Positions 41,392 to 59,515 of a stretch of 64,000 bases of DNA are shown in pieces. The notes under the pieces were generated by a model that had not been told where the DNA came from, ran no database searches, and saw nothing but the letters and a program-made list of their open reading frames with translations. Each line of letters begins with the position of its first letter. The stretch's first letter is position 1. This DNA comes from an uncultured Gammaproteobacteria bacterium (GTDB lineage Bacteria > Patescibacteriota > Patescibacteriia > UBA9934): assembly GCA_964552565.1 (NCBI GenBank), contig CAZKGL010000001.1, positions 371,061 through 435,060 on the forward strand. Reading direction: 5' to 3'. A program made the position numbers and the translations under genes.

Positions 41392-41403
41392 AGGATCGCG
41401 TCG

Positions 41404-41760
41404 CTATTTTTCCTTTCGCAAAATGCTGTCCATCGGCTTCCCCTTTGCCAGCTCGTCGATAAGTTTATCGAGATATCGAAGTTCGCGCATGGTCTTTTCC
41501 TTGATGTCTTCCACACGAACGCCGCAGACGATACCGGTAATCCGCTTTCGCTTGGGATTCGGTCGTGGTGCCTCCGCATAAAACGTTTCAAAGTCCGTTT
41601 CTTTCCTGAGCTGCGTCTCCAGTCCCTTCTGCGTATAGCCCGTGAGCCAGCGGATAATTTCATCGACCTCCGTTTTCGTACGTCCCTTTGCCACCGCTTT
41701 CTTCACATAAAGCGGGTAGACGCTGGCGAAGCTCACCCTGTAGATCCGATGCATGGTCAT
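41404..41760 (-). CDS. DUF2200-family protein
   Basis: [40 protein letters not shown]...[16 protein letters not shown] matches the remembered DUF2200 consensus. Confidence 0.55.
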
Positions 41761-41831
41761 ATCTTCTTGCACTATAAAGGAAAGCACGAACCTTTTACAG
41801 CTCGTGTTTCCTGCCGCGATTGAGTTGCGTG

Positions 41832-42287
41832 TTACCGACTGAGCTCCTCGGCCAGTCCGATGATGATGCCTTCGGGGCCGCGCAGGAAGCAGAGCCGATA
41901 GATGTCCTCGTATTGCGCAATCTCGCCGACGAGTTCTGCGCCGTGGCCGCGCAGGCGTGCGACGACGTCGTCGATGTCGCCGACGGTGAACATGATGCGG
42001 CGGATGCCCAGCGTGTTCGCGGGTGCGTTTTCTGGCTCGGCTTTCACCGCCGGCGGCCGGTGGAACTTCGTCAGCTCAACCCTGCCGTGGCCATCCGGGG
42101 TCCGCATCAAGGCGATGTCGGCGCGGACGCCGCGCAGCCCGACGACGCTGTCCACCCAAGGCCCCTCGACCGTCGTCTCGCCCTCCAGCTCCATACCGAG
42201 TTCGGCGAAGAACGCTTTCGCCTTCTCGATGTCTTCGACAACGATCAGCACATTGTCCATCCGTAGCGATGTATTTTTTGTAGTCAT
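41832..42287 (-). CDS. VOC/glyoxalase-family protein
   Basis: 151 aa with paired beta-alpha-beta-beta-beta modules ([12 protein letters not shown]..., [10 protein letters not shown]). Confidence 0.75.
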
Positions 42288-42332
42288 ATGCTTAGGGGAC
42301 GACGTGAGAGCTGCCGTGCAAAAATACGACGG

Positions 42333-42557
42333 CTACATCAGCCGTTTCAGTGAGAACTCGACGCGGAAAACCTCAGTATAAATATCAAGATCATATACCG
42401 CACCGCACCGTGCACATGTCACACGCTCTTTCGTTTGCATTGTTGTACGGATGTGGTGTTCGTCCATGAGGTTACGAATGGCCTGTGGCAGGTCCTCCCT
42501 GTACAGATCGCCGTCGTATTGTTCGGGAATGTGTTGGCAGTTTTCGCACAACTTCAT
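42333..42557 (-). CDS. Small zinc-ribbon protein
   Basis: 74 aa with CENC...CARC. Low GC. Confidence 0.4.
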   Translation of the reverse strand: MKLCENCQHIPEQYDGDLYREDLPQAIRNLMDEHHIRTTMQTKERVTCARCGAVYDLDIYTEVFRVEFSLKRLM

Positions 42558-42707
42558 ACTTATTCTGATGCCCTATTGAGCGTGCCCATACGAGATCTAG
42601 TTTACCAGCCGAGGCCCCTTACGGGTAGTCGTCAAACAACAAAACCCCAGCGTTTCCGCTGAGGAATTGTTGGCTCGGCGGCACGGTCTCGAACTCACTT
42701 TACGACA

Positions 42708-43295
42708 ATGATTGAGGGGTCTTTCAAGGGGGTCAAACAGGCACCCGGGTCTCATCAAAGTGAGACAAATGGGACGATACGTCAGGGGGTCACCACAAAC
42801 GAAAATAGCGGAAATAAAGGGGTTTTAATAAATTCCAATATGCGAACAGAAGACGAACAAAGTAGGACGCTCACAGACGAAGAGATCGGGGACTTTGTGA
42901 GGTTCTTCGAGTTGCTTGCTCAAGTCGATAGACGACTTAAGGGATGGAAAGAGCGTCTCAAGATTGAACCGGAAGGATTCCCGATTAACAATGGGATTTA
43001 CGATTGCAACCTGTGTTGCCGATCTATGAAGGATTACGAGGGTTGGTACGACCAGTACGGATTGAAATGTCCGTTATGCCGAAAGGCGGTCAATGACGGC
43101 ATCGTGCCGGGATCGGCAGTCCTCGATGATACGACGTGGTTTTCGGTGAGTCAGTTGTTGACGAAATACGGATGGCATCATACGACCGTACACAAAAAAG
43201 CGCGGAGCGGAGAGCTGAAGGCGAGAATCGTCAAAAACGTCGATGGCAGGCCATACTTCTACGTGTTCTTGAAGGAGGAGAATCCCGGCATTTAA
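42708..43295 (+). CDS. Hypothetical protein with a CxxC...CPxC ribbon and a C-terminal excisionase/MerR-like HTH
   Basis: The C-terminus WFSVSQLLTKYGWHHTTVHKKARSGELKARIVK resembles Xis-family HTH_17. The start is uncertain. Confidence 0.4.
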   Translation: MIEGSFKGVKQAPGSHQSETNGTIRQGVTTNENSGNKGVLINSNMRTEDEQSRTLTDEEIGDFVRFFELLAQVDRRLKGWKERLKIEPEGFPINNGIYDCNLCCRSMKDYEGWYDQYGLKCPLCRKAVNDGIVPGSAVLDDTTWFSVSQLLTKYGWHHTTVHKKARSGELKARIVKNVDGRPYFYVFLKEENPGI

Positions 43296-43510
43296 GACTT
43301 CATGGTTACGCTACTCAGGCTATTTGGAAGATTTGTTTTTAGGGGTATTTACAGCTTGCTTTGCAATATCAGTTCGACAAATCCCACGTTTAGCGCACGC
43401 ATCCTCACATTCCTGCGCATACTGCGCCTCAAGATACTGAAAGCCGCATTGCTCGCAGGTAAAAAGTGTCTTGTCGTCTTTCTCGACCGTTTTGACCATA
43501 GAGATGGCGA

Positions 43511-43960
43511 TTAGTTTCGAAGCGCTTCTCGTTCTCTGAGAAAGGCCATTTGCGCGTCTTGTAAATGCATAACCGGACGACGTTCTTTGAGATACGCGAC
43601 CGCTTCGTCGGCTGTCTTACCTTGCTCAGCGACAAGATAGGCGGCGACAAGCACAGGCGCTCTTCCATGTCCGTTTTTGCAATGGATGAAGCACGGGATA
43701 TTCTTCCCTGCAAAGAAGCGCAACGCTGCAACGCCGAGATCGGCTTTCTCGTGTGACATAGCAGCATGGTCTTCGGTTGGAAGCCAAAGGAAAAAGTCGA
43801 CGCCGTACGGTTGGTCGATCCGCTCCTTCTCAAGGCTGATGGCAGCGCGCACTCCTCGAGCGATTAATGTATCGTCGAAGTGCGTGACGCAACAGGCATT
43901 CTGACCAATGAAAATCAGTGGGGTTATTTCCGAGTAATCAAAAGATTCGTGAACATGCAT
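43511..43960 (-). CDS. Dual-specificity (Cys-based) protein phosphatase
   Basis: CX5R P-loop HCKNGHGRAP. 149 aa. Last gene of a 4-gene operon. Confidence 0.8.
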   Translation of the reverse strand: MHVHESFDYSEITPLIFIGQNACCVTHFDDTLIARGVRAAISLEKERIDQPYGVDFFLWLPTEDHAAMSHEKADLGVAALRFFAGKNIPCFIHCKNGHGRAPVLVAAYLVAEQGKTADEAVAYLKERRPVMHLQDAQMAFLREREALRN

Positions 43961-43968
43961 AACGTAGT

Positions 43969-44223
43969 TTATGAAGCAATCTTCGCTACTAGCTCTCCTC
44001 GTTGATGCAGGGCTACCACATCATCGTAACCTCCCACGAATTCGTCGCCAATAAAAATCATCGGCACCGTTCTCCAGTTGTATTTTTCGCTCAAAGCCTC
44101 CGCCTCTGCGGCATCTGCAGCAAGGTTCTTTTCCTCAAATGGCACCTTGAGCGAAGTAAAAAGTTGTTTTGCAAGCATGCAATATGCACATCCTGGCGAA
44201 GTGTAAATTGTTACTTGTTTCAT
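43969..44223 (-). CDS. Glutaredoxin
   Basis: 84 aa with a CAYC active site and a TVP...GGYDD glutathione-binding pattern. Its ATG overlaps the upstream TGA. Confidence 0.85.
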   Translation of the reverse strand: MKQVTIYTSPGCAYCMLAKQLFTSLKVPFEEKNLAADAAEAEALSEKYNWRTVPMIFIGDEFVGGYDDVVALHQRGELVAKIAS

Positions 44224-45611
44224 ACAATGGCTTTCACGCTATAAGCGGCGGCACCGACCCCTTCTGCAAATGTCGGATACGCATGAATCATTTTTGCGAT
44301 GGTCGTGTACGGAATATTCGCGAACATCGCGAGCGCAATCTCGTGGACAATCTCAGCCGCAGCCTGACCTACGACGTGGCCGCCGAGCACGTGACCACTT
44401 TCCATGTCGACGATAATTTTTACAAGCCCGTCAGATTCGCCCGTGACGAGCGCCTTGCCGAGCATGGCGTACGGAGCGGTACCGATACCGACTTTCTTGC
44501 CCAGCTTCATCGCTTCTGCTTCCGTCACGCCAACCGACCCAACCTCCGGGGTGCAAAATGTCCCTCGTGGAACAACGCGAAGGTCTGATTGCACAGTATT
44601 GCCTTTTGCTATGTTTGTCGCGGCAATGGTTCCTTGCTCGTGCGCGACGTGGGTGAACAGCATTTGGCCAGCCGCATCGCCCGCAAAGTAGACCGAAGCA
44701 TTGGATATCGACTGCATGAACTCATTCAGTTTTGGCCGACCGCGTTCGTCGAGTGCAATGCTGGCTTTTTCGGGCTCAAGGTCGGCAATGACTGGACGCT
44801 TTCCAACGGCCACGAGAACCGCATTCGCCACGAGCGTTTCGCGTCTCTTTTCAGATCCGAGCTCTATAGTGACACGACGCCCATCTTCGTCCGTTCCCAC
44901 ATCGACAGCCTGAGCTGTGGTAAAAATTTTTACGCCGCGCTTTGTGAAAGCCGCTGCGACAATGCCGGCAATTTCGTCATCTTCACGCGGCAAAATGTGC
45001 GGGGCGAATTCAACTATTGTTACAAGCACGCCAAGTTCCGAGAGGATCTGTGCGGATTCCACGCCGATCGGACCACCACCAATAATGATGATGGATTTCG
45101 GCAACTTTTTCAGCGTTACGATGTCGTCGCTTGTGAGAAAGCCAGACTCTTTCAATCCGGGAATGGGCGGAATTACCGTCTCGGATCCAGTAGCAATAAT
45201 AAAATGTTTTGCAGTAACCCGTTCCTTCCCGACAGCAAGCGTATCGGGTGAAATAAACTTCGCCTTTCCGCGCAAGAGATCGATGCTGAGTCTTTCGAGT
45301 ACGCCCTCGATACGTCCTTCGCCGGTCAACGCATCAACGATGCGAATTTTGCGTTCCATGATTTCGCGAAGACGAAACGAAACGCGCGGGATACGGAGGC
45401 CAAACTCCCCCGCACGGTGGGCGAGGGAGATGACTTCCGACGATCTCAATAATGCCTTTGTCGGCACACAGCCCCAGTTTGGGCATTCGCCGCCAAGACG
45501 CTTCGCGGCCTCAACGAGCGCGATACTCTTTACCCCTGCTTCGCGCGCGGTTTCTGCCGCGGAGAGACCAGCGGAACCGGAGCCGATGATGATGAGATCG
45601 TATGAGCGCAT
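44220..45611 (-). CDS. Class I pyridine nucleotide-disulfide oxidoreductase (Lpd/glutathione-reductase-like)
   Basis: FAD motif GSGSAG, redox-active CPNWGC, an NAD(P) GxGxxG motif and a C-terminal HAYPTFAE His-Glu dyad. There is no MerA CC tail. Confidence 0.85.
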   Translation of the reverse strand: MRSYDLIIIGSGSAGLSAAETAREAGVKSIALVEAAKRLGGECPNWGCVPTKALLRSSEVISLAHRAGEFGLRIPRVSFRLREIMERKIRIVDALTGEGRIEGVLERLSIDLLRGKAKFISPDTLAVGKERVTAKHFIIATGSETVIPPIPGLKESGFLTSDDIVTLKKLPKSIIIIGGGPIGVESAQILSELGVLVTIVEFAPHILPREDDEIAGIVAAAFTKRGVKIFTTAQAVDVGTDEDGRRVTIELGSEKRRETLVANAVLVAVGKRPVIADLEPEKASIALDERGRPKLNEFMQSISNASVYFAGDAAGQMLFTHVAHEQGTIAATNIAKGNTVQSDLRVVPRGTFCTPEVGSVGVTEAEAMKLGKKVGIGTAPYAMLGKALVTGESDGLVKIIVDMESGHVLGGHVVGQAAAEIVHEIALAMFANIPYTTIAKMIHAYPTFAEGVGAAAYSVKAIV

Positions 45612-45615
45612 ACCA

Positions 45616-45780
45616 CTACATTGCCGCGTGATCGTGCTGTACGCCTTCTGCGCACTTCTGGCAGGCCGCAGGAGCGGGGGCACTTTCCGCACCAGCACAC
45701 ATTGGACACATTTCAGCTTCGTTCTCTGGCTTTTGCGGTGCCGGAACCGCTCCGCCGCAGGCTGTACAAACTTTTCCCAT
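45616..45780 (-). CDS. Small Cys-rich protein (three CxxC pairs)
   Basis: MGKVCTACGG...CPMCAG...CQKCAEG. First gene of the operon; ends 4 nt before the reductase start. Confidence 0.4.
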   Translation of the reverse strand: MGKVCTACGGAVPAPQKPENEAEMCPMCAGAESAPAPAACQKCAEGVQHDHAAM

Positions 45781-45893
45781 AGAAAAGAAATAAAGAATCA
45801 ACAACGACAGTATATCGCTTTGCAAGAAATACGCTTGTAGCACAGGCTACAAAACATTGGCTCCGCTGTGGATGAGTGGTACTCTCTCAGCAT

Positions 45894-46556
45894 ATGGATC
45901 GTGTCTGGTACATCAAGAATTTCAATCTCTTCGCTGGTATTCCCAAGGAGGAAATCATGCGCATTGCTGCCTCCGCCAACGATGAGCGACATAACAGTCG
46001 TGCGCTGTTGTATACGCCGCACGACCAGGAAACACGGCTCTTTCTGGTAAAGGAGGGTGAGGTATCGCTGTACCACGTCAAGGATGGGAAGCGCTTTGTT
46101 TTTGACGTCATGGGTCCGGGGACATTGTTTGGCAATGTTGGTATGCAGGAAGGTTCACTTTCTCATTTTGCAGAAGCCGCCGAAGGCACCCGCATCTGCA
46201 CGTTTTCTTCGGCTGACTTTCAGCAGATTATTTCGGCATATCCCGTGGTCATGATGCGGGCGTTTTCGTCACTTGCACATCGACTGGAAGATTACGAAAC
46301 GAAACTCGGAGAGACGCTGTCGGACGCGAAAGAAAAGATTTTGCACGAAATTGAGCGATATGAACAAAAGCGCACACCAAAATTTCTTGAGTGGCTTTCG
46401 GGTGAGGCGACGAAGCGTCAACTTACGCACGAGCATCTCGCAAAATTAACCGGACTTAATCGAGTGACGGTTACGCGGGCAATTCATGATCTTCAGGCCG
46501 AGGGAGAGATTGACGTCGACGAGCACGGAAAAATTGTTATCCACAATAGTTTGTAG
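45894..46556 (+). CDS. Crp/Fnr-family transcriptional regulator
   Basis: cNMP-binding beta-roll followed by a C-terminal HTH (LTHEHLAKLTGLNRVTVTRAIHDLQ). No Fnr-type Cys cluster. Divergent from the Grx operon. Confidence 0.8.
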   Translation: MDRVWYIKNFNLFAGIPKEEIMRIAASANDERHNSRALLYTPHDQETRLFLVKEGEVSLYHVKDGKRFVFDVMGPGTLFGNVGMQEGSLSHFAEAAEGTRICTFSSADFQQIISAYPVVMMRAFSSLAHRLEDYETKLGETLSDAKEKILHEIERYEQKRTPKFLEWLSGEATKRQLTHEHLAKLTGLNRVTVTRAIHDLQAEGEIDVDEHGKIVIHNSL

Positions 46557-46603
46557 TATTTGTTACCGACATATATATGAGCATATCGCTATGATGTGCC
46601 CAT

Positions 46604-47086
46604 ATGAAAAATACTCTTTTTGCGATCGGAGGAATCATTGTCCTTATTGGGCTAGGATACGCAGTCTTTTCACGTCCGTCTGCTACAGACGTACCGCAAC
46701 CGGCTACGACGTCTGGCGTTGAAGCGTCGCCCACTGCGCCAACGGGCGAACAGGTCGTCTATGTAGCCGGGGCGTATCAGGATTTTTCGCAGACCGCGTA
46801 TGACTCCGCGCTTGCTGACGGCAAAACCGTTATTCTTGATTTTCACGCAGACTGGTGCCCAACGTGCCAAGTGAATGAGCCGATTATCAAGTCGGTATTT
46901 TCGACGAATACCGATACCAACATCGTCGGATTCAAAGTGAACTACGATACAGAGATCGGACTGAAGAAGGCGTTTAACATTCAGAGTCAGTCCACAATCA
47001 TTAAGACAGTAAAGGACGAGGCCGCAGAACAACTTGGCCCAGGTCCAGTAACAGCCGAAAGTTTCAGCGCATTTATCCAGTCCTAG
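46604..47086 (+). CDS. Membrane-anchored thioredoxin (TlpA/ResA-like)
   Basis: Signal anchor plus WCPTC. Confidence 0.8.
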   Translation: MKNTLFAIGGIIVLIGLGYAVFSRPSATDVPQPATTSGVEASPTAPTGEQVVYVAGAYQDFSQTAYDSALADGKTVILDFHADWCPTCQVNEPIIKSVFSTNTDTNIVGFKVNYDTEIGLKKAFNIQSQSTIIKTVKDEAAEQLGPGPVTAESFSAFIQS

Positions 47087-47090
47087 TAGT

Positions 47091-47795
47091 ATGGGGATGT
47101 TTTTATTGGCGCTTGTCGCCGGTGCTATCACCGTTACGTCACCGTGTATCATCCCCATTCTTCCGATTATTCTTGGGTCGGTACTGAAGGATCATAAGTG
47201 GTATCCCGTGTACCTCGTGCTCGGGATGTCGACGACGTTCACGGTGCTCGGCATCCTGTTTGGTGCCTTTGGTAGTGCACTTCCGATTGATCGCGTTTTC
47301 CTGAATCAACTCGCCATCTGGCTTATCGGCCTCATGGGAATTGTTCTCCTCGTAAAACCACTTGGCGATCTGTTCTCGCGTGGCACATCTATGCTCACGT
47401 CGTGGCTTGGCTCGTATGGTCCGAAAGCAAACCAGCTCGGACAGCCGGGTGAGGCCTTTGCGCTCGGATCGCTCCTTGGCATCGTCTGGGCACCGTGCGC
47501 CGGACCGATCCTCGGGTCAATCATTTTGCTCGCGTCGGGAACCGGAAGTGTCGTAAAGGCCGGACTACTGCTCTTCACGTACTCAATTGGCGCAGGGATC
47601 CCCATGCTCCTCATTGCCTACGGCGGGAAACGAGCAGTAGCGGGTAAACAGTTCATCCAAGAACAATCCGGCAGATTGAAAATGGCATTCGGTGTCGTCT
47701 TGCTTATCTCGGCACTCCTCATGGCAACGGGGGTGTTTCGCGAGCTGGAATCGCTCATCGTGCCGTATGTTCCCACGTGGAGCACGCAACTCTAA
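47091..47795 (+). CDS. ccdA: Cytochrome c biogenesis protein CcdA / DsbD-beta-domain electron transporter
   Basis: Six TM helices with the two conserved Cys (TSPCIIPILP; WAPCAGPILG). Confidence 0.85.
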   Translation: MGMFLLALVAGAITVTSPCIIPILPIILGSVLKDHKWYPVYLVLGMSTTFTVLGILFGAFGSALPIDRVFLNQLAIWLIGLMGIVLLVKPLGDLFSRGTSMLTSWLGSYGPKANQLGQPGEAFALGSLLGIVWAPCAGPILGSIILLASGTGSVVKAGLLLFTYSIGAGIPMLLIAYGGKRAVAGKQFIQEQSGRLKMAFGVVLLISALLMATGVFRELESLIVPYVPTWSTQL

Positions 47796-47816
47796 CATTT
47801 GAATGTCTATCACCCT

Positions 47817-48074
47817 ATGTCGCTACTCGAATTCTATGGCGCTGAATGCCCACATTGCATGGCGATGATGCCGCTCATTGAACGGTTGAAAAAAGAAGGC
47901 TTTGCCATTGAACAGTTTGAAACCTGGCATAACGAGGAAAACGCCAACAAGTTGAAGGAATACGACAAAGGTTTCTGCGGCGGCGTGCCGTTCTTCATAA
48001 ACACCGAAAGCGGAAAATGGATCTGCGGATCTGAATCCTATGAAGCGCTCCGAGCTTGGGCAGAAGGAAAATAG
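47817..48074 (+). CDS. Thioredoxin-fold protein with a CPHC motif
   Basis: The GAECPHC motif. Short, ~85 aa. Confidence 0.6.
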   Translation: MSLLEFYGAECPHCMAMMPLIERLKKEGFAIEQFETWHNEENANKLKEYDKGFCGGVPFFINTESGKWICGSESYEALRAWAEGK

Positions 48075-48441
48075 CAGCGCTAGGGAAATTCTTCGCATAA
48101 CGGGCATTCCCATTTTGCTTGCATCCCTGTGCTGCCTGAGTCCGGTTATCCTTGTGCTTTTAGGACTCACGACAACGACGTTTGCCGCTTCATTGTCCGA
48201 CACCCTTTACGGACAATATCGCTGGGTGTTCCGACTCGTGGGCTTCGTCGCACTTGCCGTATCGATTATCTGGCATCTGCGAAAGCGAAGGAAGATTTGC
48301 ACATTGGATCAGGCGAAGCGCCAGCGACACAAAATTGTTAACCTCATACTGCTCTCCGTTATCACCGCTATTCTTGGATATGTTTTCTGGCTCTACGTGG
48401 TCGTGGAATATATCGGCAAACTTCTCAATATTTGGAACTAA
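48040..48441 (+). CDS. Small membrane protein with vicinal Cys in TM1 (MerT/MerF-like)
   Basis: ILLASLCCLSPVILVLLG resembles the MerT CC helix. The start overlaps the previous gene by 35 nt. Confidence 0.4.
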   Translation: MKRSELGQKENSSAREILRITGIPILLASLCCLSPVILVLLGLTTTTFAASLSDTLYGQYRWVFRLVGFVALAVSIIWHLRKRRKICTLDQAKRQRHKIVNLILLSVITAILGYVFWLYVVVEYIGKLLNIWN

Positions 48442-48458
48442 TATAACCCCTTCAATCT

Positions 48459-49175
48459 ATGACAGAAAATACAACGCCGCCCGCTAGCTTCTTCAGTGGA
48501 AATCCTAAGATGATATTCGTTTTTGGTCTCGTGGCAGGCATCGCACTCACGTCCTTGGCCGGAGATCTGTTCGCGAATACTGGATCTGCAACCGGTACAG
48601 ACACCGCCGTCGTGAATGCGAACAATACCGGGCCATCTGCTGCGGCCTCCGCAAAAACGCTTGCCGCAGTAACGGAGGACGACCACGTACGAGGCGATCT
48701 TGAAAAAGCAAAGGTCGTGCTTATCGAGTACTCGGATTACGAGTGCCCTTTTTGCGGTAGGCACCATCCCACTATGCTCGATGTAGCAGAGCAATACGGC
48801 GACGATGTCGCTTGGGTGTATCGCCATTTTCCGCTCACGTCCATTCATCCGCAAGCAATGCCAGCAGCGCTCGCCGCCGAGTGTGCGAACGAACAAGGAA
48901 AGTTTTGGGAATATACGGATGCGCTCTTTGAAAACCAGAGCGATCTCAGCTCTTCATTTTATACCGAACTTGCTGGTGACCTTGGCATGAATACGTCAAA
49001 ATTCAGCGACTGCGTGGAAAGCGAGAAATATGCGGCGAGAGTAAAGGCCGATATCGCGTCAGGACAAGCCGCTGGTGCCACGGGCACGCCAGCAACATTC
49101 GTGAATGGCACGTTGGTGTCTGGCGCTGTACCGCTTTCGACATTCACAGGCCTTATAGACGCGGCACTCAAATAA
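48459..49175 (+). CDS. DsbA/BdbD-like thiol-disulfide oxidoreductase
   Basis: TM anchor, CPFC active site and the DSBA-fold cis-Pro region. Confidence 0.8.
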   Translation: MTENTTPPASFFSGNPKMIFVFGLVAGIALTSLAGDLFANTGSATGTDTAVVNANNTGPSAAASAKTLAAVTEDDHVRGDLEKAKVVLIEYSDYECPFCGRHHPTMLDVAEQYGDDVAWVYRHFPLTSIHPQAMPAALAAECANEQGKFWEYTDALFENQSDLSSSFYTELAGDLGMNTSKFSDCVESEKYAARVKADIASGQAAGATGTPATFVNGTLVSGAVPLSTFTGLIDAALK

Positions 49176-49623: not shown

Positions 49624-49632
49624 TTCAATAGT

Positions 49633-51592: not shown

Positions 51593-51595
51593 TAG

Positions 51596-52150: not shown

Positions 52151-55100
52151 CTACTGCAACTCGCCACCCGCCTTGAAGGATCTAATGTCTGCAGCCACGC
52201 GGCGCAGGTGTACGGGCAGTAACCGCATCCGAATCGCGAGAAGTGATACAGCGATCTCGATCGCCTTATTCGCTTGCGGATGCCTACCAATGTACCGAAG
52301 AAGGCTATGCAGTATTCCTCGCTCCCTAATGCCAAGACGCTTGTCCGTATAGATATACATTATCAAATCGCCAAGTATCGTCCCGATCGGCTGGACGGAG
52401 GTCTCCTTCTTCACCAACTCATTCATCAATAGCTCAACATTTTGGTCAAGCAGATTGAAGTTCGCAACTTCGAGATAGCGAACAATCATTGCGGTGTCAA
52501 TCGTTACATACGAATATCCGCACTTCAACAATTCCATTCTCCCGGCGTCATACTCCTCCTCAGACACCAGATTATGTTTACGCGCATTTCGAAGAAGTTC
52601 CTGACTTGTTGCAATGTCGAGACCCCCCAATGTTTTTATTGCATCACGGCCGAGGTACGAATCGTCACACACTACAGGTAGCCCTCTCTGTGAAGCAATT
52701 ACCATAGTCGTGCCCGATGATCCGTACTGCTCCTCAAACTGCTTCCTATCAGGAGAAACTGGACGTGCGTAGCCGACTCGTGTACAGGTCTCAAAGAAAG
52801 CTTGCACCTTTGTCAGAAGCTGCAGACTTTTCTCGTACGCCTCGGCGCTGACATCATTCATCATGACTGAGCCGTCGGCGCTGCCCTGTAGAAAAGATTG
52901 CCCTTTCTTAGAAAGCTTCGTGTACTCCTCGATTAGAGAGGAGAGCTGATCGCAAGTAAACTGATCAACATACACTTGCGTAAATGCCTTCTTTATCAAA
53001 TCCAAACGATCGAGGCGCGCCAATGTCAGAGCGGCACTCATGTCTACGATCACCTCTTTTTCCTTAAAAAGGATATTCTCACTTTCCGCAGCCTCTTGCG
53101 TATTTCCGAGGAAGGCATAAACCGGGAAGTCTTTCGCGGTTATCACATCGGACCACACCTCGAAATACTTCTTGGAGATGAGAGTTGAGATCTGATTCAA
53201 GGATAGGCGCTTGGCCTTATACTCCGCGATGACTTTATCGATCGCCTTGGCCCTTGCTGAGACCACCTCACCGATTTTCTTCATTCCATCTTGATCGGCT
53301 GAAAACTTCATGATCGCCTCTTGTCCCGGGGCGCGATTCTCGAAATTTTCCATTATGTCCTGATAGTACCTGACGTGCTTATCCTGAACAGCACCTTCCT
53401 GATCACTTACATGGTGAAAGACAGAGATGTACGCCAACTGAATCTCAGGGTTAGTGAAGTTTCTATCCAAAGCACTGAAGGCTGTTTCAAGTGCTTCGGC
53501 ATATTCGCCATTCAAGACAAGAAGGTTCGCAACTTGCATGAGTTGCTCCGCTTCGCTCGCCGAGTGCAACGCCTTCTTGATGTAAGGTGAATAATCTGCG
53601 ATAGACCCCGAAAGTCTAAATCTGCACTCAAGGAAGCCTATAACATCACCGAAAACGAAGTGATCCTCATCTATTAACTTTTTGTATTTCTCTGCTGCGG
53701 TCTCAAGGTCTCCAAGTACATGGGTGAAGTTCGCCGAAACCCGGAGAAGAGTGTCGGATTGAAGCGCCTTTTCGCTAGCCAAAACCATCAGAGCTTGCAA
53801 CTGTTCATACTTCTTTGCGTTGAATAGAGCAATTGCATATCTTTCAAAATTTTCTGCCGACGGATCTCCCTCGATAGCCAAGGCTAAAATTTCTGCGGCC
53901 TTCTCAAAATCTCCTATCTTCAAGAGAAAGGTTGAGTAATCATCGAGAATTATTTGATGAATTGGATTTGCCTCTACGGCCGCGTCCATCGCACGCTCGA
54001 AGTATTCTCCTGAAAGTTCGAGCTGATTTTGGTGCGCATGAAATATGGCAACCGATCTAAACGCCAAAGGATTGTCCGGGCATTCGGCGAGCAACTCATC
54101 TCTAACCTTTAGAGCCTTATCGGTCTCTTGGAGATCCAAATGGCCTAACATCAACAATCGCATCGTTTCAATATAAACCTCATCTCGATCGTCGCTCCTA
54201 TTCCCAGACAACAGTTCGACTGTCTTGCCCGGCTTCTTGCTGAAGAGGTACGCGGCCGCCAAATCCCTCCTCAAGTGATCTGGTAACGTGGTAATTTTTG
54301 AATACGCCTCTAACGCTTCGATCACGTATTCGTAACGATGGGAGATAAGACCCGCTCTCGACTTATTCACCAACGCCTCTATATTTTCGGCATCAAGTGA
54401 AAAGGCCCGATTAGCATATTCGATGCAGTCGTCATATTGTTTAAGAACCAAGTTGGCGGCCGATAGGTTGGTATAGAGGGGTGCCTCAAACTGTTTTGGC
54501 GCTTGCCCCTCAAACAACTTTACAGCCTCGGTCAAAGCCTTTTTCGCTTCTTCAAAATCCTTACAGATTGCATCCGGGATAATCGCGCCTTGTAATCTTC
54601 CTTCAAGATCCCTCGAGTGAAGCAGTAAAATTTCTTGAGCGAAAAACAATTTATACCAAACCTCCTTATCATCGCTTTCCTTGAGTTTTTTATATGCATC
54701 AGCTGCGCCCTTGTGGTCACGCAACTTACTCGCCTTCAGCGCGAAAATAAAGTCTTTGGTTGCTTGATTTTCAATGTCAGCAATGTCCCGATCAACTGCA
54801 TCGATGTCATTCAAGTCAAGATGGCAACGCGCGCGAATAGACAAGGCATGATCTCTATCCTGTAGATCTCTCGCTAGTACCATGTTAATCATTCCGAGAG
54901 CAGTTCCCGGATCCTTGGCGGCCAAGAATGCCTGTGCGTGGTTTGCGCCCGCCTTCTCATTTTCCGAATCAAGTGCGATTGCTTTTTCAAATAACAATTT
55001 AGCTTTATCCGTTTCGCCAAGCCGCAATTCGCATAGTCCAAGATTGTTATGAATCTTGGACATAGTCTTCTTGCCGACTCCACCGGCAGTCGGAAGATCC

Positions 55101-55771
55101 GCAAGAATATCGTACCCATCGCGGCGGGCGCCCGTGTAATCTCCCTCATCTATTTTCTTGACCATCCGCTTGTTTCTTGCATCGAATAGACCCGAAAGTT
55201 CCCCACTCTCTATTACAGAAGATTGCAAAGAGGCGACAGCTGCCTGAAGCGCCGCAAGCTGTTGCTGTGTTGTTTCAAAGATATCCGGATGACGTTCCTT
55301 TACTGTCGGATGCTGATCTGCCAGTTGCCTCAAATGCTCAGCGGAGTACACGAGGTATTTGCAGTTGTTCTCTCGTGTCAGCTCTGCAAGAACATCGTGC
55401 TGCTCCTTACGCAGTGCGGCAGGGGTAACAAACACCCAAGTATCAAACGGGTACATCCCACGTTGTTCGATCGCCTTACTGAAATCAGAACGAATTTTCT
55501 TGTTGTAAGCATCGTTCGACGACCGGGTACTCAAAAGCGGAGTATAAATTGCGAAAAAAATCTTGGCTGATGTTGTGTACCCATCCATCCCATCATCGCC
55601 ACCCCTGTCGTCAATAACAAGAAAATCTTGATGCTCCGCGAGCAAGAGATCTTTGACTAACGCTTCAAATACTTTGTTGTTGTCAATGTGCTCGATTTTC
55701 TTCGTGTACTTATATGCGTCACTATCCGGCATATTCTTATCGTAAGGAAGAACCCTGCCGACATGAAACAC
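52151..55771 (-). CDS. 1206-aa TPR-repeat array protein with an N-terminal Mrr/restriction-endonuclease-like domain
   Basis: More than 900 aa of TPR-like helical repeats. The N-terminus FEALVKDLLLAEHQDFLVIDDRGGDDGMDGY resembles the Mrr_cat signature. Low GC. Confidence 0.75.
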   Translation of the reverse strand: MFHVGRVLPYDKNMPDSDAYKYTKKIEHIDNNKVFEALVKDLLLAEHQDFLVIDDRGGDDGMDGYTTSAKIFFAIYTPLLSTRSSNDAYNKKIRSDFSKAIEQRGMYPFDTWVFVTPAALRKEQHDVLAELTRENNCKYLVYSAEHLRQLADQHPTVKERHPDIFETTQQQLAALQAAVASLQSSVIESGELSGLFDARNKRMVKKIDEGDYTGARRDGYDILADLPTAGGVGKKTMSKIHNNLGLCELRLGETDKAKLLFEKAIALDSENEKAGANHAQAFLAAKDPGTALGMINMVLARDLQDRDHALSIRARCHLDLNDIDAVDRDIADIENQATKDFIFALKASKLRDHKGAADAYKKLKESDDKEVWYKLFFAQEILLLHSRDLEGRLQGAIIPDAICKDFEEAKKALTEAVKLFEGQAPKQFEAPLYTNLSAANLVLKQYDDCIEYANRAFSLDAENIEALVNKSRAGLISHRYEYVIEALEAYSKITTLPDHLRRDLAAAYLFSKKPGKTVELLSGNRSDDRDEVYIETMRLLMLGHLDLQETDKALKVRDELLAECPDNPLAFRSVAIFHAHQNQLELSGEYFERAMDAAVEANPIHQIILDDYSTFLLKIGDFEKAAEILALAIEGDPSAENFERYAIALFNAKKYEQLQALMVLASEKALQSDTLLRVSANFTHVLGDLETAAEKYKKLIDEDHFVFGDVIGFLECRFRLSGSIADYSPYIKKALHSASEAEQLMQVANLLVLNGEYAEALETAFSALDRNFTNPEIQLAYISVFHHVSDQEGAVQDKHVRYYQDIMENFENRAPGQEAIMKFSADQDGMKKIGEVVSARAKAIDKVIAEYKAKRLSLNQISTLISKKYFEVWSDVITAKDFPVYAFLGNTQEAAESENILFKEKEVIVDMSAALTLARLDRLDLIKKAFTQVYVDQFTCDQLSSLIEEYTKLSKKGQSFLQGSADGSVMMNDVSAEAYEKSLQLLTKVQAFFETCTRVGYARPVSPDRKQFEEQYGSSGTTMVIASQRGLPVVCDDSYLGRDAIKTLGGLDIATSQELLRNARKHNLVSEEEYDAGRMELLKCGYSYVTIDTAMIVRYLEVANFNLLDQNVELLMNELVKKETSVQPIGTILGDLIMYIYTDKRLGIRERGILHSLLRYIGRHPQANKAIEIAVSLLAIRMRLLPVHLRRVAADIRSFKAGGELQ

Positions 55772-55802
55772 CTTTTATGCCTAACTCCGCAACCAAGAGC
55801 TG

Positions 55803-56177
55803 TTACTGCTTGACGATTGCAATCCCCGTCGCCCTATCCCAATAGAATCCAAAGACAAGCATTGCTAAGAACCCGATACCTGTAACAGCAGACAATGCGA
55901 TGATTTCGCGTAGGACGAGACGAAGTAGTGTCGGTCTCGCAAGCGTCTTGCGATCTACTGTGCGCAATTTAAAGAGCCTCTGACCGGGCGTTGCGCCTGA
56001 GTAAGCTGCGAGAGCTAAGCCTGCTAACAAAGCGACCAGAAAAGGCCACATCGCTCGGGACAACGCTTCGTGAAGCAGCGCATCAAAAAGGGCGACCGCC
56101 GTGCCGATGACAAAAAAGTCAATCATGAGAGCCGTGCCGCGCTTAAAATGACCATATTCAAAAATTACTTCGGACAT
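55803..56177 (-). CDS. RDD-family membrane protein
   Basis: 124 aa with 3 TM helices and an RDD-like pattern. Confidence 0.55.
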   Translation of the reverse strand: MSEVIFEYGHFKRGTALMIDFFVIGTAVALFDALLHEALSRAMWPFLVALLAGLALAAYSGATPGQRLFKLRTVDRKTLARPTLLRLVLREIIALSAVTGIGFLAMLVFGFYWDRATGIAIVKQ

Positions 56178-56178
56178 A

Positions 56179-56391
56179 CTATTTTGCCCAGCTTCCGTAA
56201 TGCTCGCAGGCTTCGGCGGCCGTTAGCTTGTTCTCAAGAGCATAGCGGTACTGCGTTTCGCCCATGCAGGCTAGAAAATCACCGCGTGCTTGATTGGGCA
56301 TCACTATAAGACGCCAAACGGCCGTCCCGGTGAGTAATACAATGCACGCGATAGCAACCTTGGTTGCTGTTTGCCTTGATATTTCCTGCAC
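56179..56391 (-). CDS. Small membrane-anchored hypothetical protein
   Basis: 70 aa with an N-terminal TM segment and a Cys pair. Confidence 0.35.
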   Translation of the reverse strand: MQEISRQTATKVAIACIVLLTGTAVWRLIVMPNQARGDFLACMGETQYRYALENKLTAAEACEHYGSWAK

Positions 56392-56955
56392 AAAGCTCGT
56401 TATTTAGAAATAAACAAAAGGACACCCCTGAGGTGTCTAGACCCAAACAGCAGGGCTACTGCCGCTTGTTTTATCAGGGATGCCCGTTACGGCGCACCAA
56501 TAGCCCTAATAAAACTGCCGACAGTTTCCTGTTGGTCAGCGCTGTTGTTTGGATCTAGACAAGATAAGTGTGCCTTAGCAGAGAAAAAGCTGCAAGAAAC
56601 ATACAGATGTGGAAAAGATGCCTTGCCTGATAGGCGTAAGGCGAGCAGAATAGAACCACAACGACTCGGGCCTTGCCCGGGTCAACAGACTGCAAAAGTC
56701 AGCCTTACCCTGAAATCACTTTAGGACGGCCGGACATAGCAGATTGGGAATTTTTCCCGTCTTCTATTTGTCCGGTCGTCCTTTTTGTATGAGTCAGCGC
56801 CTGCTCAAAAAGTTCATCGAGATCTACCACCGCCAATACGGGGTCGAACTCACAGAAGCAGATGCTCGCTCAAAGGCTGCTGATTTTCTCAGTCTCTACC
56901 GCGCAATTGGCGCACCTCAAAACTGAGGGTTTATCCAAGAAACCTGAGAATAAGT

Positions 56956-57204
56956 ATGAAAATTGCACCGAGCTTTTATACATCAAACTTTTACCTCGCA
57001 GCATTCATGCTTGCGAGTGGTTTTACGCTTCAGGGCTACGAACGATCGGATGACGGGAAGGTCACCTTCGTTATCGAAGACGGCGAGAACCGAGAGGAGG
57101 CCGTCGACAGTTTCCACTGCGGAAACCCGCAAGTCGATGCAAGACGTTTTATTGCGGCGATTAGGCAGCTCAAGAGCGGCATTTACGACGGTGCTGCTAC
57201 GTAG
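56956..57204 (+). CDS. DUF5659-like small protein of mobile elements
   Basis: The YTSNFYLAAFMLASGF motif is recalled from memory as typical of this family, which often sits near integrases. Confidence 0.4.
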   Translation: MKIAPSFYTSNFYLAAFMLASGFTLQGYERSDDGKVTFVIEDGENREEAVDSFHCGNPQVDARRFIAAIRQLKSGIYDGAAT

Positions 57205-57224
57205 CTGCGAATTGAAGAGAGCAT

Positions 57225-57815
57225 ATGGATTCGGGTCAATTCATCAAAGTGCCTGTTTACATCGAAGCCGACAAGCGCCTGTCTCCCACGGACAAGGCTG
57301 TCTATATGGCACTTCGAAAACATAGGAACGAACGTTCCGGCGAAGAAGTGTTTCCTTCCCGGGAGCTAATCGGTAAAAGCGTTGGACGCGGTGTGACAAC
57401 GGTGTGGCGTTCACTCAAAAACCTAGCGAACTGTGGGCATATCGTTTGGAAAAGCGGAGCGCAAGGCAGGTCCAATCGCTACCAGTTCACCCATGAAACG
57501 GTAAGCAGTTCACCGGTGCAATCTAGTCATGTCGCCAATGAACCACTCAGCAGTTCATCCGCGAACCACGAATCAGAATCAGGAACCCAAAAACAAGAAT
57601 CAGATAACTCATCACTTTTCTTTCGAGGGGAACTCTGCCTGATCAATGAAGACGGAACCTCCGTTCAGGTTATCGGCAACGACGGCTTCCTCACGCCCTA
57701 CGACGGGAGAAGCGACTCAGACTTTCGATATCGAAACCTTACAGGACCCAAAGCCCTTCGTGTCGCCCTCCACGACTACCAGATGCAAGCATTTGGTTTC
57801 GCAAGAAATAGCTAA
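57225..57815 (+). CDS. Winged-helix/HTH protein (phage replication- or regulator-like)
   Basis: LSPTDKAVYMALRKH...FPSRELIGKSVGRGVTTVWRSLKNL fits the HTH_36 pattern. Confidence 0.5.
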   Translation: MDSGQFIKVPVYIEADKRLSPTDKAVYMALRKHRNERSGEEVFPSRELIGKSVGRGVTTVWRSLKNLANCGHIVWKSGAQGRSNRYQFTHETVSSSPVQSSHVANEPLSSSSANHESESGTQKQESDNSSLFFRGELCLINEDGTSVQVIGNDGFLTPYDGRSDSDFRYRNLTGPKALRVALHDYQMQAFGFARNS

Positions 57816-57895
57816 GACTAGCACCTTATTCAGTTATTCAAGTGATGGCGCGAGACCCGCTGTTGGGATAAAATCGAAGAAACTAGAATAAGCAT

Positions 57896-59515
57896 ATGCA
57901 ATCAGCCGTTGTCATTTACGCCCGCAAGTCGAGCGAACAAGAGGATCGTCAGATCTTGAGTATCGATTCTCAGATCGCCGAGCTTAAGCAACTTGCCCTG
58001 AAGTTTGAGGTAACCCCGAAGTACGTTATTAGCGAATCCTTCAGCGCAAAGGCTCCCGGTCGAGAAAAGTTCAACGAGATGGTTGCTCTTATTGAGGCTG
58101 GAAAAGTAGACACGATTTTTGCTTGGCATCCCGATCGTCTGTCTCGCAATGCAGTAGACGCTGCGTGGCTTATTCACCTTCTTGATACTGGTAAGCTCAA
58201 AGCAATCATCACGCCGAGCCAATCTTTCAAAAATACTCCGAACGATAAGTTTCTTTTCAACCTCCTCACCAGTCAGGCGAAGCTTGAAAACGACAACAAG
58301 AGTATCAACGTAAAACGAGGGTTGAAGACTAAAGTCGAGATGGGCTGCTACCCCGGTGTTGCTCCGCTTGGCTATCTGAACAACAAGTACAAGGAGAAGG
58401 GTAAGAAGGACGTTTATCTCGATGCTGAACGTGGCCCGATCCTCCGCAAGATCTTCGACCTAATTCTTGAAGGCATGCCTCCCATGCGAGCCTTGGAAAT
58501 CGCAAATGAAAAGCTTGACTTCCGCACCCCTCACGGAAATAAGCTCGCACGTACGACACTCTACCGTGTTCTCACGATGCCCTTTTATTACGGTGAGTTC
58601 GAATACCCGAAAGGTAGTGGCAAATGGTACAAGGGCAACCACGAACCCCTGATCACAGTTGAGGAATACGACCGAGTTCAAACTTTTCTTGGACGAGACG
58701 GTAGACCACGGGCGCGCCAGAGCCTCTATAACTTCCCCTACAAGGCGATGATGCGCTGCGGGGAGTGTGGCGCCGCTATTACCATTGAGCGCAAGGTAAA
58801 GCGTCAGAAGAATGGTAATGTCCACGAGTACGTCTATTATCACTGTACGAAGCGCATTAAAAGGGACTGCACGCAGAAATGCGTCGAGGCAAAAGAGATT
58901 GATGACCAGATCGCCGAGACCTTGGCTTCCGTGAAGATCCCTCAGGAGTTCCATGAATGGGCCATTGAGGCGTTACGCGAGGAAAATGAAGCCGAGACCT
59001 CGTCACGCGCGCAGACTATGAAACGCCAACGCTCCTCATATGACGAGACGGTTCGGATGATGGATGAGCTGCTCGATATGCGCCTCAAGAAACAGATCTC
59101 CGATGAGCAGTTCGCTGACAAGAAGGCATCCTTGGAACACGATAAAACGCGCTATAAGGAGCTTCTCAACGATACCGACCGTAGGATCGACTGGTGGATG
59201 AATGTCGCGGGGGAGGCCATGCAATTCCTTTGTGAAGCCCAACAGAAATTTATCGAAGGCGACGCAGACCGAAAGACCCGCATTCTGAACGCCCTTGGTT
59301 CGAACTTCACCCTTCTCGACGGAAAACTAGTCGTTTCTGTGAAGGAAACGCTTCTTTCGGTTACCGAGCAATATCACCAGATGAAACAGGCTGGAAAAAT
59401 GTTCGAACCTCTGAAATTTGGCTCTACAAAACAAAGAACCGACACCATTTCTGATGTCAGTTCCATGTGGCTCCGGGGGTGGGGTTCGAACCCACGACCA
59501 TCTCGTTACACTTGA
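57896..59515 (+). CDS. Large serine recombinase (integrase)
   Basis: Resolvase catalytic region YARKSSEQEDRQ...SIDSQ, a recombinase domain, a zinc ribbon CGECG...HCTKRIKRDC and a coiled coil. 539 aa. Confidence 0.9.
   Translation: MQSAVVIYARKSSEQEDRQILSIDSQIAELKQLALKFEVTPKYVISESFSAKAPGREKFNEMVALIEAGKVDTIFAWHPDRLSRNAVDAAWLIHLLDTGKLKAIITPSQSFKNTPNDKFLFNLLTSQAKLENDNKSINVKRGLKTKVEMGCYPGVAPLGYLNNKYKEKGKKDVYLDAERGPILRKIFDLILEGMPPMRALEIANEKLDFRTPHGNKLARTTLYRVLTMPFYYGEFEYPKGSGKWYKGNHEPLITVEEYDRVQTFLGRDGRPRARQSLYNFPYKAMMRCGECGAAITIERKVKRQKNGNVHEYVYYHCTKRIKRDCTQKCVEAKEIDDQIAETLASVKIPQEFHEWAIEALREENEAETSSRAQTMKRQRSSYDETVRMMDELLDMRLKKQISDEQFADKKASLEHDKTRYKELLNDTDRRIDWWMNVAGEAMQFLCEAQQKFIEGDADRKTRILNALGSNFTLLDGKLVVSVKETLLSVTEQYHQMKQAGKMFEPLKFGSTKQRTDTISDVSSMWLRGWGSNPRPSRYT
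59468..59510 (-). tRNA. tRNA 3' exon-like half (anticodon-stem 3' strand, variable loop, T-arm GTGGGTTCGAACCCCAC, acceptor CCCCGGA-G-CCA)
   Basis: The reverse complement reads tgtaacgagatggtcgtgggttcgaaccccacccccggagcca. It pairs with the 5' half at 60056-60087. Confidence 0.5.

Follow-up and report, generated by a model that had tools for sequence, protein, structure and literature searches.

A block of low G+C content (GC) beside a recombinase gene raises the question whether the whole block moves, or once moved, as a single unit. We asked this of the region at 41.4-59.5 kb in a DNA stretch of 64,000 nucleotides (hereafter the window, to which positions refer unless another locus is named), in which the original prediction had seen one integrative island, with a thiol/disulfide redox toolkit as its cargo and with an Xis-like helix-turn-helix (HTH) gene and a large serine recombinase gene at its two ends. 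The reading that we prefer, with a probability of about 0.6, is that the region is a composite hot spot of acquired DNA at an intron-bearing transfer RNA (tRNA)-Asn gene, made up of an intact 7.4-kb element, which includes the recombinase gene, and an older imported mosaic, which includes the redox toolkit.

A serine recombinase gene that ends inside a split tRNA-Asn gene

The large serine recombinase is present as predicted. It is intact and has all three hallmark domains, namely the catalytic domain (PF00239, E 4e-23, residues 5-150), the recombinase domain (PF07508, E 2e-10) and the zinc ribbon (PF13408, E 5e-9), and it matches the PHROG integrase family phrog_95 (E 1e-72). The putative nucleophile, S12, lies in the motif YARKSSEQED and is nearly invariant among 20 members of the clade described below. 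The best NCBIfam matches of the protein were XisF and CcrB, all far under the cut-offs, and its identity to the integrases of cultured phages was ~25%.

Directly after the recombinase stop codon, Rfam reported a group I intron on the minus strand (RF00028, 59517-59798, 78 bits, E 4e-18). This intron interrupts the single tRNA-Asn gene that was found in the window (Table 1). In-silico splicing, in which 60087-60054 was joined to 59508-59468, gave a canonical 75-nt tRNA-Asn(GTT) fold, with a U ending the 5′ exon and a G ending the intron. Over its final 48 nt, the recombinase open reading frame (ORF) runs antisense through exon 2 and into the intron end. The split gene was invisible to ARAGORN at its default settings and was miscalled as tRNA-His when introns were allowed (-i); for annotation, this means that a group I intron at position 35/36 hides the only tRNA-Asn gene of the window from standard tRNA finders.

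Group I introns inserted in tRNA-Asn or tRNA-Asp genes at position 35/36 show strong enrichment in Patescibacteria and undergo self-splicing in vitro, and the tRNA-Asn introns longer than 500 nt in the same survey (n=4) carry HNH genes; recombinases are nowhere mentioned there (PMC13011429; Nakagawa et al., mSystems 2026). Judged by its position and features, the intron of the window is of this known class, and it supports a patescibacterial host. The 35/36 tRNA-Asn intron with its HNH frame, the taxonomic spread of the recombinase clade and the 839-kb length of the source contig make a Patescibacterium with a reduced genome the probable host, the kind that the original prediction had allowed for.

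A displaced tRNA end as the probable far limit of a 7.4-kb element

The final 15 nt of exon 2 (CCACCCCCGGAGCCA, 59468-59482) recur without a mismatch at 52062-52076, where they form part of a displaced copy of the tRNA 3′ end that reads GGTTCGAAtacccgaCCACCCCCGGAGCCA, and the match stops exactly at the CCA of the tRNA. Beside this 15-nt core, and still within 52062-52091, lies an 8-nt GGTTCGAA block; strand and side are as an attachment-site (att) junction requires. Under composition-preserving nulls, counted over the whole window and both strands, the probability of the exact 15-mer was ~0.007 and that of the gapped score ~0.04. The significance of the copy is thus moderate when it is taken alone and stronger given the required strand, side and distance. 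Removal of the 7,406-bp unit between the two cores in silico regenerated an identical tRNA, and the 52.07-kb junction was independently assembled in a short-read contig (L218; Table 1). Same-strand tRNA relics of 13-16 nt were also found 8.9-11.3 kb from the tRNA in four loci with related recombinases (L006, L060, L067 and L072).

A search for att sites at both ends of the presumed island thus succeeded in part: the repeat pairs the tRNA with 52.07 kb, and nothing significant was found at 41-43 kb. Neither the tRNA T-arm nor the 3′ half recurred at 41-43 kb, and a look-alike of the tRNA-Asn 3′ end at 42671-42702 (minus strand), considered as an older junction, had 20/32 matches, which equals the median of the shuffled-window maxima. 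The sole att-like repeat leaves the redox genes outside the 7.4-kb unit, which speaks against one 17-kb element with redox cargo.

As read from the two junctions, attR is ...GGTTCGAACC-CCACCCCCGGAGCCA-CATGGAACTG and attL is ...GAATACCCGA-CCACCCCCGGAGCCA-TGAGAAGGCG. The sites reconstructed from them predict an attB of ...GGTTCGAACC-core-TGAGAAGGCG and an attP of ...GAATACCCGA-core-CATGGAACTG. We also considered the 5-bp offset of GGTTCGAA between the junctions as a signature of the different zinc-ribbon spacing in attP and attB, and discarded it; the similarity in L006 is in register, and no convincing symmetry centre emerged.

In its gene order, the element consists of leftward genes for a protein with TPR and PIN domains, an RDD protein and a small ORF, followed by rightward genes for DUF5659, an HTH_36 protein and the recombinase. 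The four loci with relics share this layout, in which a leftward cargo operon, a divergent intergenic region and a rightward module of replication-initiator (Rep) and recombinase genes follow one another. The 7.4-kb unit is apparently an intact member of a large, mostly patescibacterial integrative family, and the stretch does contain a bona fide integrative module, as had been claimed.

A clade of recombinases associated with tRNA genes

The closest relatives of the recombinase have at most 55% identity to it. In the two closest relatives with genomic context (L001 and L002), the ORF likewise ends inside an antisense tRNA-Asn gene, which is uninterrupted; their stop codon, TAA, is the complement of U35-U36-A37, and the ORF of the window is two codons longer through the intron insertion. 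Scanning species-representative genomes with an alignment of the clade yielded 80 more loci, nearly all in metagenome-assembled genomes (MAGs) of Patescibacteria. When the ORFs of the relatives were extended to their true stop before tRNA overlap was scored, the stop codon lay inside an antisense tRNA gene in 55 of the 76 evaluable relatives, the run into the tRNA being 10-64 nt long. The overlapped tRNAs have at least nine identities: Asn (typically 42 nt of overlap), Gln (61 nt), His, Lys, Ser, Trp, Ile, Glu and Arg. Three of the overlapped tRNA-Asn genes of the clade also contain introns, two of which were confirmed as group I.

Such genomes have roughly one tRNA gene per 20 kb, and because of this spacing the association is far beyond chance. 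The variety of the tRNAs and of the neighbouring genes points to mobility rather than to an ancestral gene pair. From this pattern of overlaps we take the recombinase to belong to a tRNA-targeting clade of large serine recombinases. The clade is apparently undescribed: in the limited set of literature searched, serine recombinases of Patescibacteria that target tRNA genes were nowhere described, and the survey of such recombinases by Durrant et al. never mentions tRNA. Among relatives on viral contigs, the closest full-length matches had no tRNA at the recombinase end, and no contig was circular.

Two related loci showed features of their own. L072 contains three copies of the tRNA-Asn T-arm/acceptor, comprising a full tRNA and an adjacent partial copy that overlaps the recombinase end (11583-11723 of that locus) and a distal copy at 2505, an arrangement that suggests tandem or repeated integration at one tRNA; its element carries a YibE/F membrane protein as cargo. 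L031 contains an Rfam LOOT RNA (RF03000, 72 bits) at 7559-7673 on the minus strand, ~2.4 kb upstream of the related recombinase.

Tetranucleotide usage separates the redox segment from the recombinase element

The predicted abrupt switch in GC and the low-GC block of ~17 kb were borne out. In 1-kb windows, GC was 0.58-0.69 up to 41 kb, 0.46-0.53 at 42-59.5 kb and ~0.6 from 60 kb onward; host DNA had a GC of ~0.63 and a third-codon-position GC (GC3, from long ORFs) of ~0.8, as compared with ~0.50 and ~0.55 at 42.3-59.5 kb. At 200-nt resolution, the fall starts at ~41.3 kb, a block of 0.63-0.70 intervenes at 41.8-42.2 kb, and the rise past 59.5 kb is gradual. The overall shift is real, but the tract is not uninterrupted, being broken by a high-GC glyoxalase/VOC gene.

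We then compared tetranucleotide usage as the correlation (r) of base-composition-normalised usage between segments. The host segments correlated with each other at 0.88-0.94 and the redox segment with the host at 0.81-0.84, whereas the redox segment and the recombinase element correlated at only 0.73. The recombinase element, with an r of 0.66-0.74 to the host, has the most deviant signature within the window. The sliding-window check that had been proposed thus showed the shift, and the tetranucleotides moreover separated the two parts of the low-GC block.

On the left, the most distal atypical gene by composition is that for DUF2200, and its linkage to host genes is also present in an independent contig (L219). 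The adjoining glyoxalase/VOC protein had thousands of matches at 83-89% amino acid identity, including named Actinomycetota and Thermoleophilaceae MAGs and many soil Actinomycetota-type sequences; for h265, a genuine host gene, the best non-self match was only 56%. By these matches, the glyoxalase/VOC gene is foreign, and it probably came from Actinomycetota. The observation suggests a recent transfer, from a phylum that includes possible hosts of a patescibacterial epibiont. Composition and gene relationships together support horizontal acquisition of the stretch, as originally proposed. Of the limits at 41.4 and 59.5 kb, what stands is that they enclose foreign DNA; this DNA is a patchwork of acquisitions, and its right edge is the split tRNA-Asn gene rather than the recombinase stop codon.

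As to the host flanks, a short intergenic stretch on the right (61300-61600) has a very low GC of 0.39-0.41, with a perfect 15-nt hairpin nearby (61745-61781). A contig from a related host (L137) carries homologues of window 35.9-37.2 kb inverted beside a homologue of h265 (window 60.4-61.6 kb), where a zf_Tbcl_2 gene lies in between and a tRNA is absent, a difference from the window that is explicable by an inversion of ~25 kb with one end at the tRNA-Asn locus. The 680-aa flank protein had no relative among the species-representative genomes.

The redox genes resemble chromosomal genes of another lineage

A metagenome scan with CcdA recovered relatives of a 4.7-kb redox core (43348-48077), which comprises the genes for the phosphatase, glutaredoxin, reductase, Crp-family regulator, thioredoxin, CcdA and thioredoxin-like protein. 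Nucleotide identity was 77-82% to a groundwater contig (L085) and ~72% to a further contig (L086). Both have a uniform GC of 0.48-0.51 and lack a recombinase in their flanks, which encode a sigma factor, an NTPase, MurB, MurC and a hibernation factor. Because of this chromosomal context and uniform GC, the redox core looks native to a lineage of ~0.5 GC and foreign in the window. Downstream of the core, the three genomes do not carry the same set of genes, and the region is therefore mosaic. The core of L085 starts 165 nt after a tRNA-Gln gene (341-414 of that contig, plus strand). The possibility that tRNA-Gln repeats bound the module of L085 as a cassette was set aside, because neither a convincing repeat nor a displaced tRNA-Gln fragment was found.

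None of the genes of the redox segment (42.7-52.0 kb) occurred within 10 kb of 84 related recombinases, where DUF5659 alone recurs; conversely, neither a DUF5659 gene nor a Rep-like gene is present in the redox segment. A recombinase pseudogene left of 52.06 kb was also sought, and none was found; weak matches at 52.06-52.14 kb are antisense tRNA-like sequence in another frame. Taken with the position of the segment outside the repeat, its tetranucleotide correlation with the element and the context of its relatives, these results do not support the toolkit as the cargo of a mobile element, and there is no evidence of current mobility for it. Since L006 carries ribonucleotide reductase and multicopper oxidase genes, the segment may be a remnant of an element that had integrated earlier at this tRNA.

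The Xis-like HTH gene that had been placed at the left end, o195, found no support: no Xis or HTH family matched any ORF of the left end, and o195 had no Pfam match at E<=5, no PHROG match and only a weak PADLOC match. Its best match in the PDB was Mor of phage Mu (E 0.27), BLASTP against an HTH_17 protein of L003 gave E 4.6, and its AF2 model had a pLDDT of 36 and was unusable. Of the two recombination genes said to sit at the ends, only the serine recombinase on the right is therefore verified.

Table 1. Features of the window and independent contigs that match it
Feature	Position	Strand	Details
Host gene h250	40639-41391		directly adjoins DUF2200 gene
DUF2200 gene	41404-41787	-	Pfam PF09966, E 4e-48; GC 0.51; left-most atypical gene by composition
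Glyoxalase/VOC gene	41832-42287	-	Pfam Glyoxalase; GC 0.63-0.70
74-aa ORF	42333-42557	-	CxxC...CxxC, zinc-ribbon-like; weak Zn_ribbon_4 match, E 0.0026
o195	42708-43295	+	the predicted Xis-like HTH gene
DSP/PTP-type phosphatase	43511-43960	-	Pfam; HCX5R motif
Glutaredoxin	43969-44223	-	Pfam; CAYC motif
Class-I pyridine-nucleotide disulfide reductase	44220-45698	-	CPNWGC; C-terminal His/Glu dyad (GR/LipDH type); without MerA CC pair
Crp/Fnr-family regulator	45876-46556	+	cNMP_binding and HTH_Crp_2; between the two operons
Envelope thiol-disulfide run	46604-51592	+	Pfam, NCBIfam, motifs, hydropathy
DUF1905 gene	51596-51967	-	Pfam PF08922; last gene of the redox-side segment
Displaced tRNA-Asn 3′-end copy	52062-52091	-	interpreted as an attL-type junction
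Integrative element between core copies	52077-59482		7,406 bp
TPR protein with PIN domain	52151-55771	-	1206 aa; Pfam TPR families and PF20698; element cargo
RDD-family membrane protein	55803-56177	-	Pfam RDD
70-aa ORF	56179-56391	-	small ORF of the leftward cargo operon
Nested imperfect inverted repeat	56434-56561		~128 nt; divergent intergenic region
DUF5659	56956-57204	+	Pfam
HTH_36 replication-initiator-like protein	57225-57815	+	Pfam; PHROG replication-initiator families, E 6e-10
Large serine recombinase	57896-59515	+	539 aa; Pfam Resolvase, Recombinase and Zn_ribbon_recom
Whole intron-split tRNA-Asn gene	59468-60087	-	single tRNA-Asn gene found in the window
tRNA-Asn(GUU) exon 2	59468-59508	-	41 nt; CCA encoded; final 15 nt are the core
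Group I intron	59509-60053	-	545 nt; insertion at position 35/36
Degenerate HNH ORF within intron	~59704-60024		in-frame TAA (frame analysis); HNH PF01844, E 3e-4
tRNA-Asn(GUU) exon 1	60054-60087	-	34 nt
Contig L219	42213-30639		links host genes to DUF2200 and VOC; ends inside VOC gene
Contig L218	52098-45940		spans 52.07-kb junction
Contig L220	52866-59509		recombinase through core and all of exon 2
Contig L136	59482-61492		tRNA/right flank

Independent assemblies cover the junctions of the element

Four short-read contigs, all from read set SRR12113420, are 100% identical to the window (Table 1). They cover the edge from host DNA to the VOC gene, both junctions of the recombinase element and the tRNA with its right flank; 42214-45939 and 52099-52865 are not covered, and the left edge of the redox block is without independent support. 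A chimera is unlikely, though all four contigs share one read set. L220 and L136 overlap by 28 nt inside exon 2 (59482-59509), which implies a branch in the assembly graph; this might come from a second strain or a variant of the intron or element.

Cargo of the element

Pfam confirmed the giant TPR, RDD and DUF5659 proteins of the original prediction, and it additionally placed a PIN domain in the giant (PF20698, residues 908-1040, 43.7 bits against a cut-off of 27.8), of the type found in TPR-GreAB-C-PIN conflict systems. A GreA/B C-terminal-like domain had no Pfam match in this protein or its neighbours, a result obtained without a dedicated profile or structure search. PADLOC recognised no defence system, and the 7.4-kb element contains no genes for phage structural proteins or conjugation. 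DUF5659 recurs upstream of related recombinases, and a primase-polymerase holds the Rep position in L001. None of the small ORFs had a family match that would make it a candidate recombination directionality factor, a class of proteins so varied that sequence does not reveal its members. The relic-delimited element of L006 (1295-11608 of that locus) carries a class I ribonucleotide reductase, with the large subunit and an ATP-cone small subunit, and the multicopper oxidase.

The inverted repeat between the divergent gene groups folded as RNA at -57.8 kcal/mol (z -4.9) and -64.8 kcal/mol (z -6.5) relative to shuffles. It belongs to no Rfam family, and no similar sequence was present among 217 loci; as a LOOT RNA, like that of L031, it was rejected for lack of an Rfam match. 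The repeat could be an origin, a regulatory site or operator, or a non-coding RNA.

Predicted functions of the redox genes

The predicted operon of glutaredoxin, reductase and phosphatase, the Crp regulator and the run of thioredoxin, CcdA, DsbA and DoxX genes were all confirmed by Pfam and NCBIfam, and domains and motifs agree with the description of the genes as a redox toolkit; the functions proposed here are drawn from those domains and motifs. The envelope run begins with a transmembrane (TM)-anchored thioredoxin (CPTC), a CcdA/DsbD_TM protein with two TM cysteines and a 91-aa thioredoxin-like protein (CPHC), continues with a MerT-like protein (vicinal CC), a TM-anchored DsbA-like protein (CPFC) and DoxX, and ends with a Cys-rich 135-aa ORF, a 76-aa ORF and a DAO-type FAD oxidoreductase. 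The reductase, the CAYC glutaredoxin and the HCX5R phosphatase would form a cytoplasmic NAD(P)H-driven thiol-reducing unit. CcdA beside a TM-anchored thioredoxin is the classical route of reducing power to the envelope. The CPFC DsbA-like protein would supply oxidation, the MerT-like protein may move a thiophilic substrate, and DoxX is a possible membrane redox partner because no DsbB or VKOR is present. The Cys-rich ORF (49633-50040, plus strand; 6 Cys, with CSLC and CSNGVC motifs and no family match) is 61% conserved in L086 beside the DsbA-like gene, and it may be an unrecognised envelope redox partner.

We rejected a mercury-resistance (mer operon) reading: the MerA model (TIGR02053) scored 359 against a cut-off of 454, the C-terminal CC pair is missing, and MerT scored 35 against 150 bits. 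The NCBIfam matches of the disulfide reductase operon were all under the equivalog cut-offs. By these scores and its gene content, the cluster is neither a mer operon nor a textbook Dsb system.

A history of the locus and its alternatives

The composite reading implies the following course of events, in which the recombination chemistry, the crossover position and the order of steps are our proposals. An attP that spans the recombinase gene's own 3′ end would pair with an attB that lies towards the 3′ end of the tRNA gene, in its T-stem/acceptor part, and strands would be exchanged somewhere within the shared 15-nt segment. The element would thereby supply a new tRNA 3′ end, the old one staying behind at 52.07 kb. 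Integration would also replace the C-terminal tail of the recombinase, which has 539 aa in the integrated state and is predicted to have 551 aa when excised; with a crossover inside the core, the host would encode the final ~11 codons of the integrated gene. The HTH_36 Rep-like protein may replicate an excised circle, and the TPR-PIN giant may be selfish or defensive cargo. The distal 10.7 kb (41.4-52.06 kb) would be an older mosaic of the DUF2200 gene, the actinobacterial-type VOC gene and the Crp-regulated thiol/disulfide system, the last derived from a ~0.5-GC lineage in which it is chromosomal. This segment is not bounded by sites of the present recombinase, and it most likely arose from at least one earlier insertion at the same tRNA, whose machinery would since have been lost.

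Several observations weigh against this reading. The relic at 52.07 kb is short, and relics of at least 13 nt in the relatives numbered only 4 on the same strand versus 1 in the opposite-strand control; most relatives have no relic within 10 kb. Attachment sites of serine integrases are ~40-50 bp long, with imperfect dyad symmetry around a 2-bp crossover, and the reconstructed attP and attB show no clear dyad centre or crossover dinucleotide. The ~95 nt adjoining the relic on the redox side are low in GC and not obviously the original host flank. No empty site, attP junction or circular form, for which searches had been suggested, was observed: the Logan contigs showed only the occupied form, and the sole related host contig (L137, ~65-70% nucleotide identity) is rearranged and uninformative on the empty site. 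The GC of the redox segment (0.50) and that of the recombinase element (0.49) also fit a single origin, and the metabolic cargo of delimited relatives means that redox genes could have been cargo. The host phylum, finally, is inferred rather than proven.

Near-uniform GC over 42.3-59.5 kb is what one would expect if the whole ~17-18 kb were one serine-recombinase island that includes the redox cargo, with the 52.07-kb copy a chance match or internal scar and with an unrecognisable distal att site near 42.3-42.7 kb. The weak tRNA-3′-like stretch at 42671-42702, beside o195, lies about where such a site would be expected, and att sites of serine recombinases need to share only 2 bp, so that a missing repeat is not fatal; the ribonucleotide reductase and multicopper oxidase of L006 show metabolic/redox cargo in the family, and the window-wide p of the 52.07-kb match is only ~0.007-0.04. 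We nevertheless consider a single island improbable. The 42.7-kb look-alike is at chance level. The copy at 52.07 kb agrees exactly with the tRNA as far as its terminus, has the expected strand and side, and lies about as far from the tRNA as is usual among the delimited relatives. Tetranucleotide usage differs between the halves, no redox gene lies near the related recombinases, the nearest relatives of the redox core are in non-mobile contexts, and the Xis gene is unsupported. Tandem accretion of two elements of one family, in which an earlier element brought the redox cluster to the tRNA, was displaced when the 7.4-kb one integrated into the regenerated tRNA and then lost its recombinase and Rep genes while its distal junction decayed, is in our view equally improbable. 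Tandem arrays at tRNA sites are known to arise by repeated integration (as in Islander work), L072 has partial T-arm copies in tandem by its recombinase, family cargo can be metabolic, the redox segment directly adjoins the displaced tRNA end, and the stretch at 42.7 kb could be a degraded tRNA-like sequence. This history predicts antisense recombinase coding sequence past the relic, but none is there, nor is there any recombinase pseudogene or fragment left of 52.06 kb; the segment lacks DUF5659 and Rep-like genes, and the distal relic is not significant.

An artefact of assembly or binning, by which a low-GC block of another organism was joined through conserved tRNA sequence, seems very improbable. 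In its favour, the DNA probably derives from a MAG, chimeras classically form at tRNA genes, and the contigs, all from the one read set, stop inside the VOC gene or within ~30 nt of tRNA/core sequences. It would, however, take two separate chimeric joins, and the left edge has no repeat. L218 spans the 52.07-kb junction, L219 joins host genes to the DUF2200 and VOC genes, and L220 reaches the host-specific exon 2, whose anticodon-stem strand pairs with exon 1; moreover, the same arrangement of recombinase and tRNA occurs in dozens of unrelated assemblies. We retain the composite hot spot as the preferred reading.

Implications and comparison with known systems

Gene exchange in Patescibacteria, which have tiny genomes and few recognised mobile elements, is poorly understood. 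A tRNA-sited recombinase clade in dozens of MAGs offers concrete candidate vehicles of such exchange, with cargo that ranges from the PIN giant to ribonucleotide reductase; the clade is a more interesting outcome than the redox island. One may go further and suppose that this serine-integrase clade, with its attB in the T-stem/acceptor part of tRNA genes, its attP over its own 3′ end and its tail swap, is a main vehicle of gene flow among Patescibacteria, a supposition that we regard as rather unlikely. If it were true, the tail swap could serve as an inherent switch from integration to excision and back, and a tRNA that is hit repeatedly could become a hot spot in which adaptive cargo gathers, for example the thiol/disulfide toolkit and genes from actinobacterial hosts. 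It would be unusual for serine integrases to recognise tRNA sequences that are short and highly conserved; the predicted sites consist of the 15-nt core plus flanks. The locus also cautions that a uniform low-GC block beside a recombinase need not be a single mobile element.

The intron resembles those surveyed previously (PMC13011429) in its tRNA-Asn host gene, 35/36 site, preceding U and final G, length of more than 500 nt with an HNH ORF and its being missed or miscalled by ARAGORN; it differs in that the HNH ORF has an in-frame stop and that the host tRNA doubles as the target of an integrative element. The redox cluster shares with CcdA/DsbD-thioredoxin, DsbA and mer systems a CcdA beside an anchored CxxC thioredoxin, a CPFC DsbA-like protein, a MerT-like CC protein and a MerA/LipDH-like flavoprotein; unlike the textbook Dsb and mer systems, it has no DsbB or VKOR and has an additional glutaredoxin, PTP-type phosphatase, DoxX and DAO oxidase.

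Islands borne by tRNA genes classically carry tyrosine integrases. The element is like those islands (Islander/TIGER-type) in having an integrase gene by the tRNA, a regenerated tRNA 3′ end, a displaced fragment at the far end and the potential of a hot spot of multiple acquisitions; it is unlike them in its enzyme, a large serine recombinase, in the ORF of that enzyme, which across the clade extends 10-64 nt into the tRNA in antisense, and in the repeat, which has only ~13-16 nt. Characterised large serine integrases mostly target protein-coding genes. With the known integrases and excisases of this kind (phiC31, Bxb1, A118/LI, SPbeta SprA, SCCmec CcrAB and Anabaena XisF), the recombinase shares the three-domain architecture and the conserved Ser, whereas the ORFs of its clade overlap tRNA genes and its identity to cultured-phage integrases is low. 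Archaeal viruses of the SSV1 type have their attP within the gene of a tyrosine recombinase, and integration splits that gene in two. The likeness to SSV1 would lie in an attachment site inside the integrase ORF and in an encoded protein that is altered on integration; in the element described here, the exchange would be confined to the last ~11 codons.

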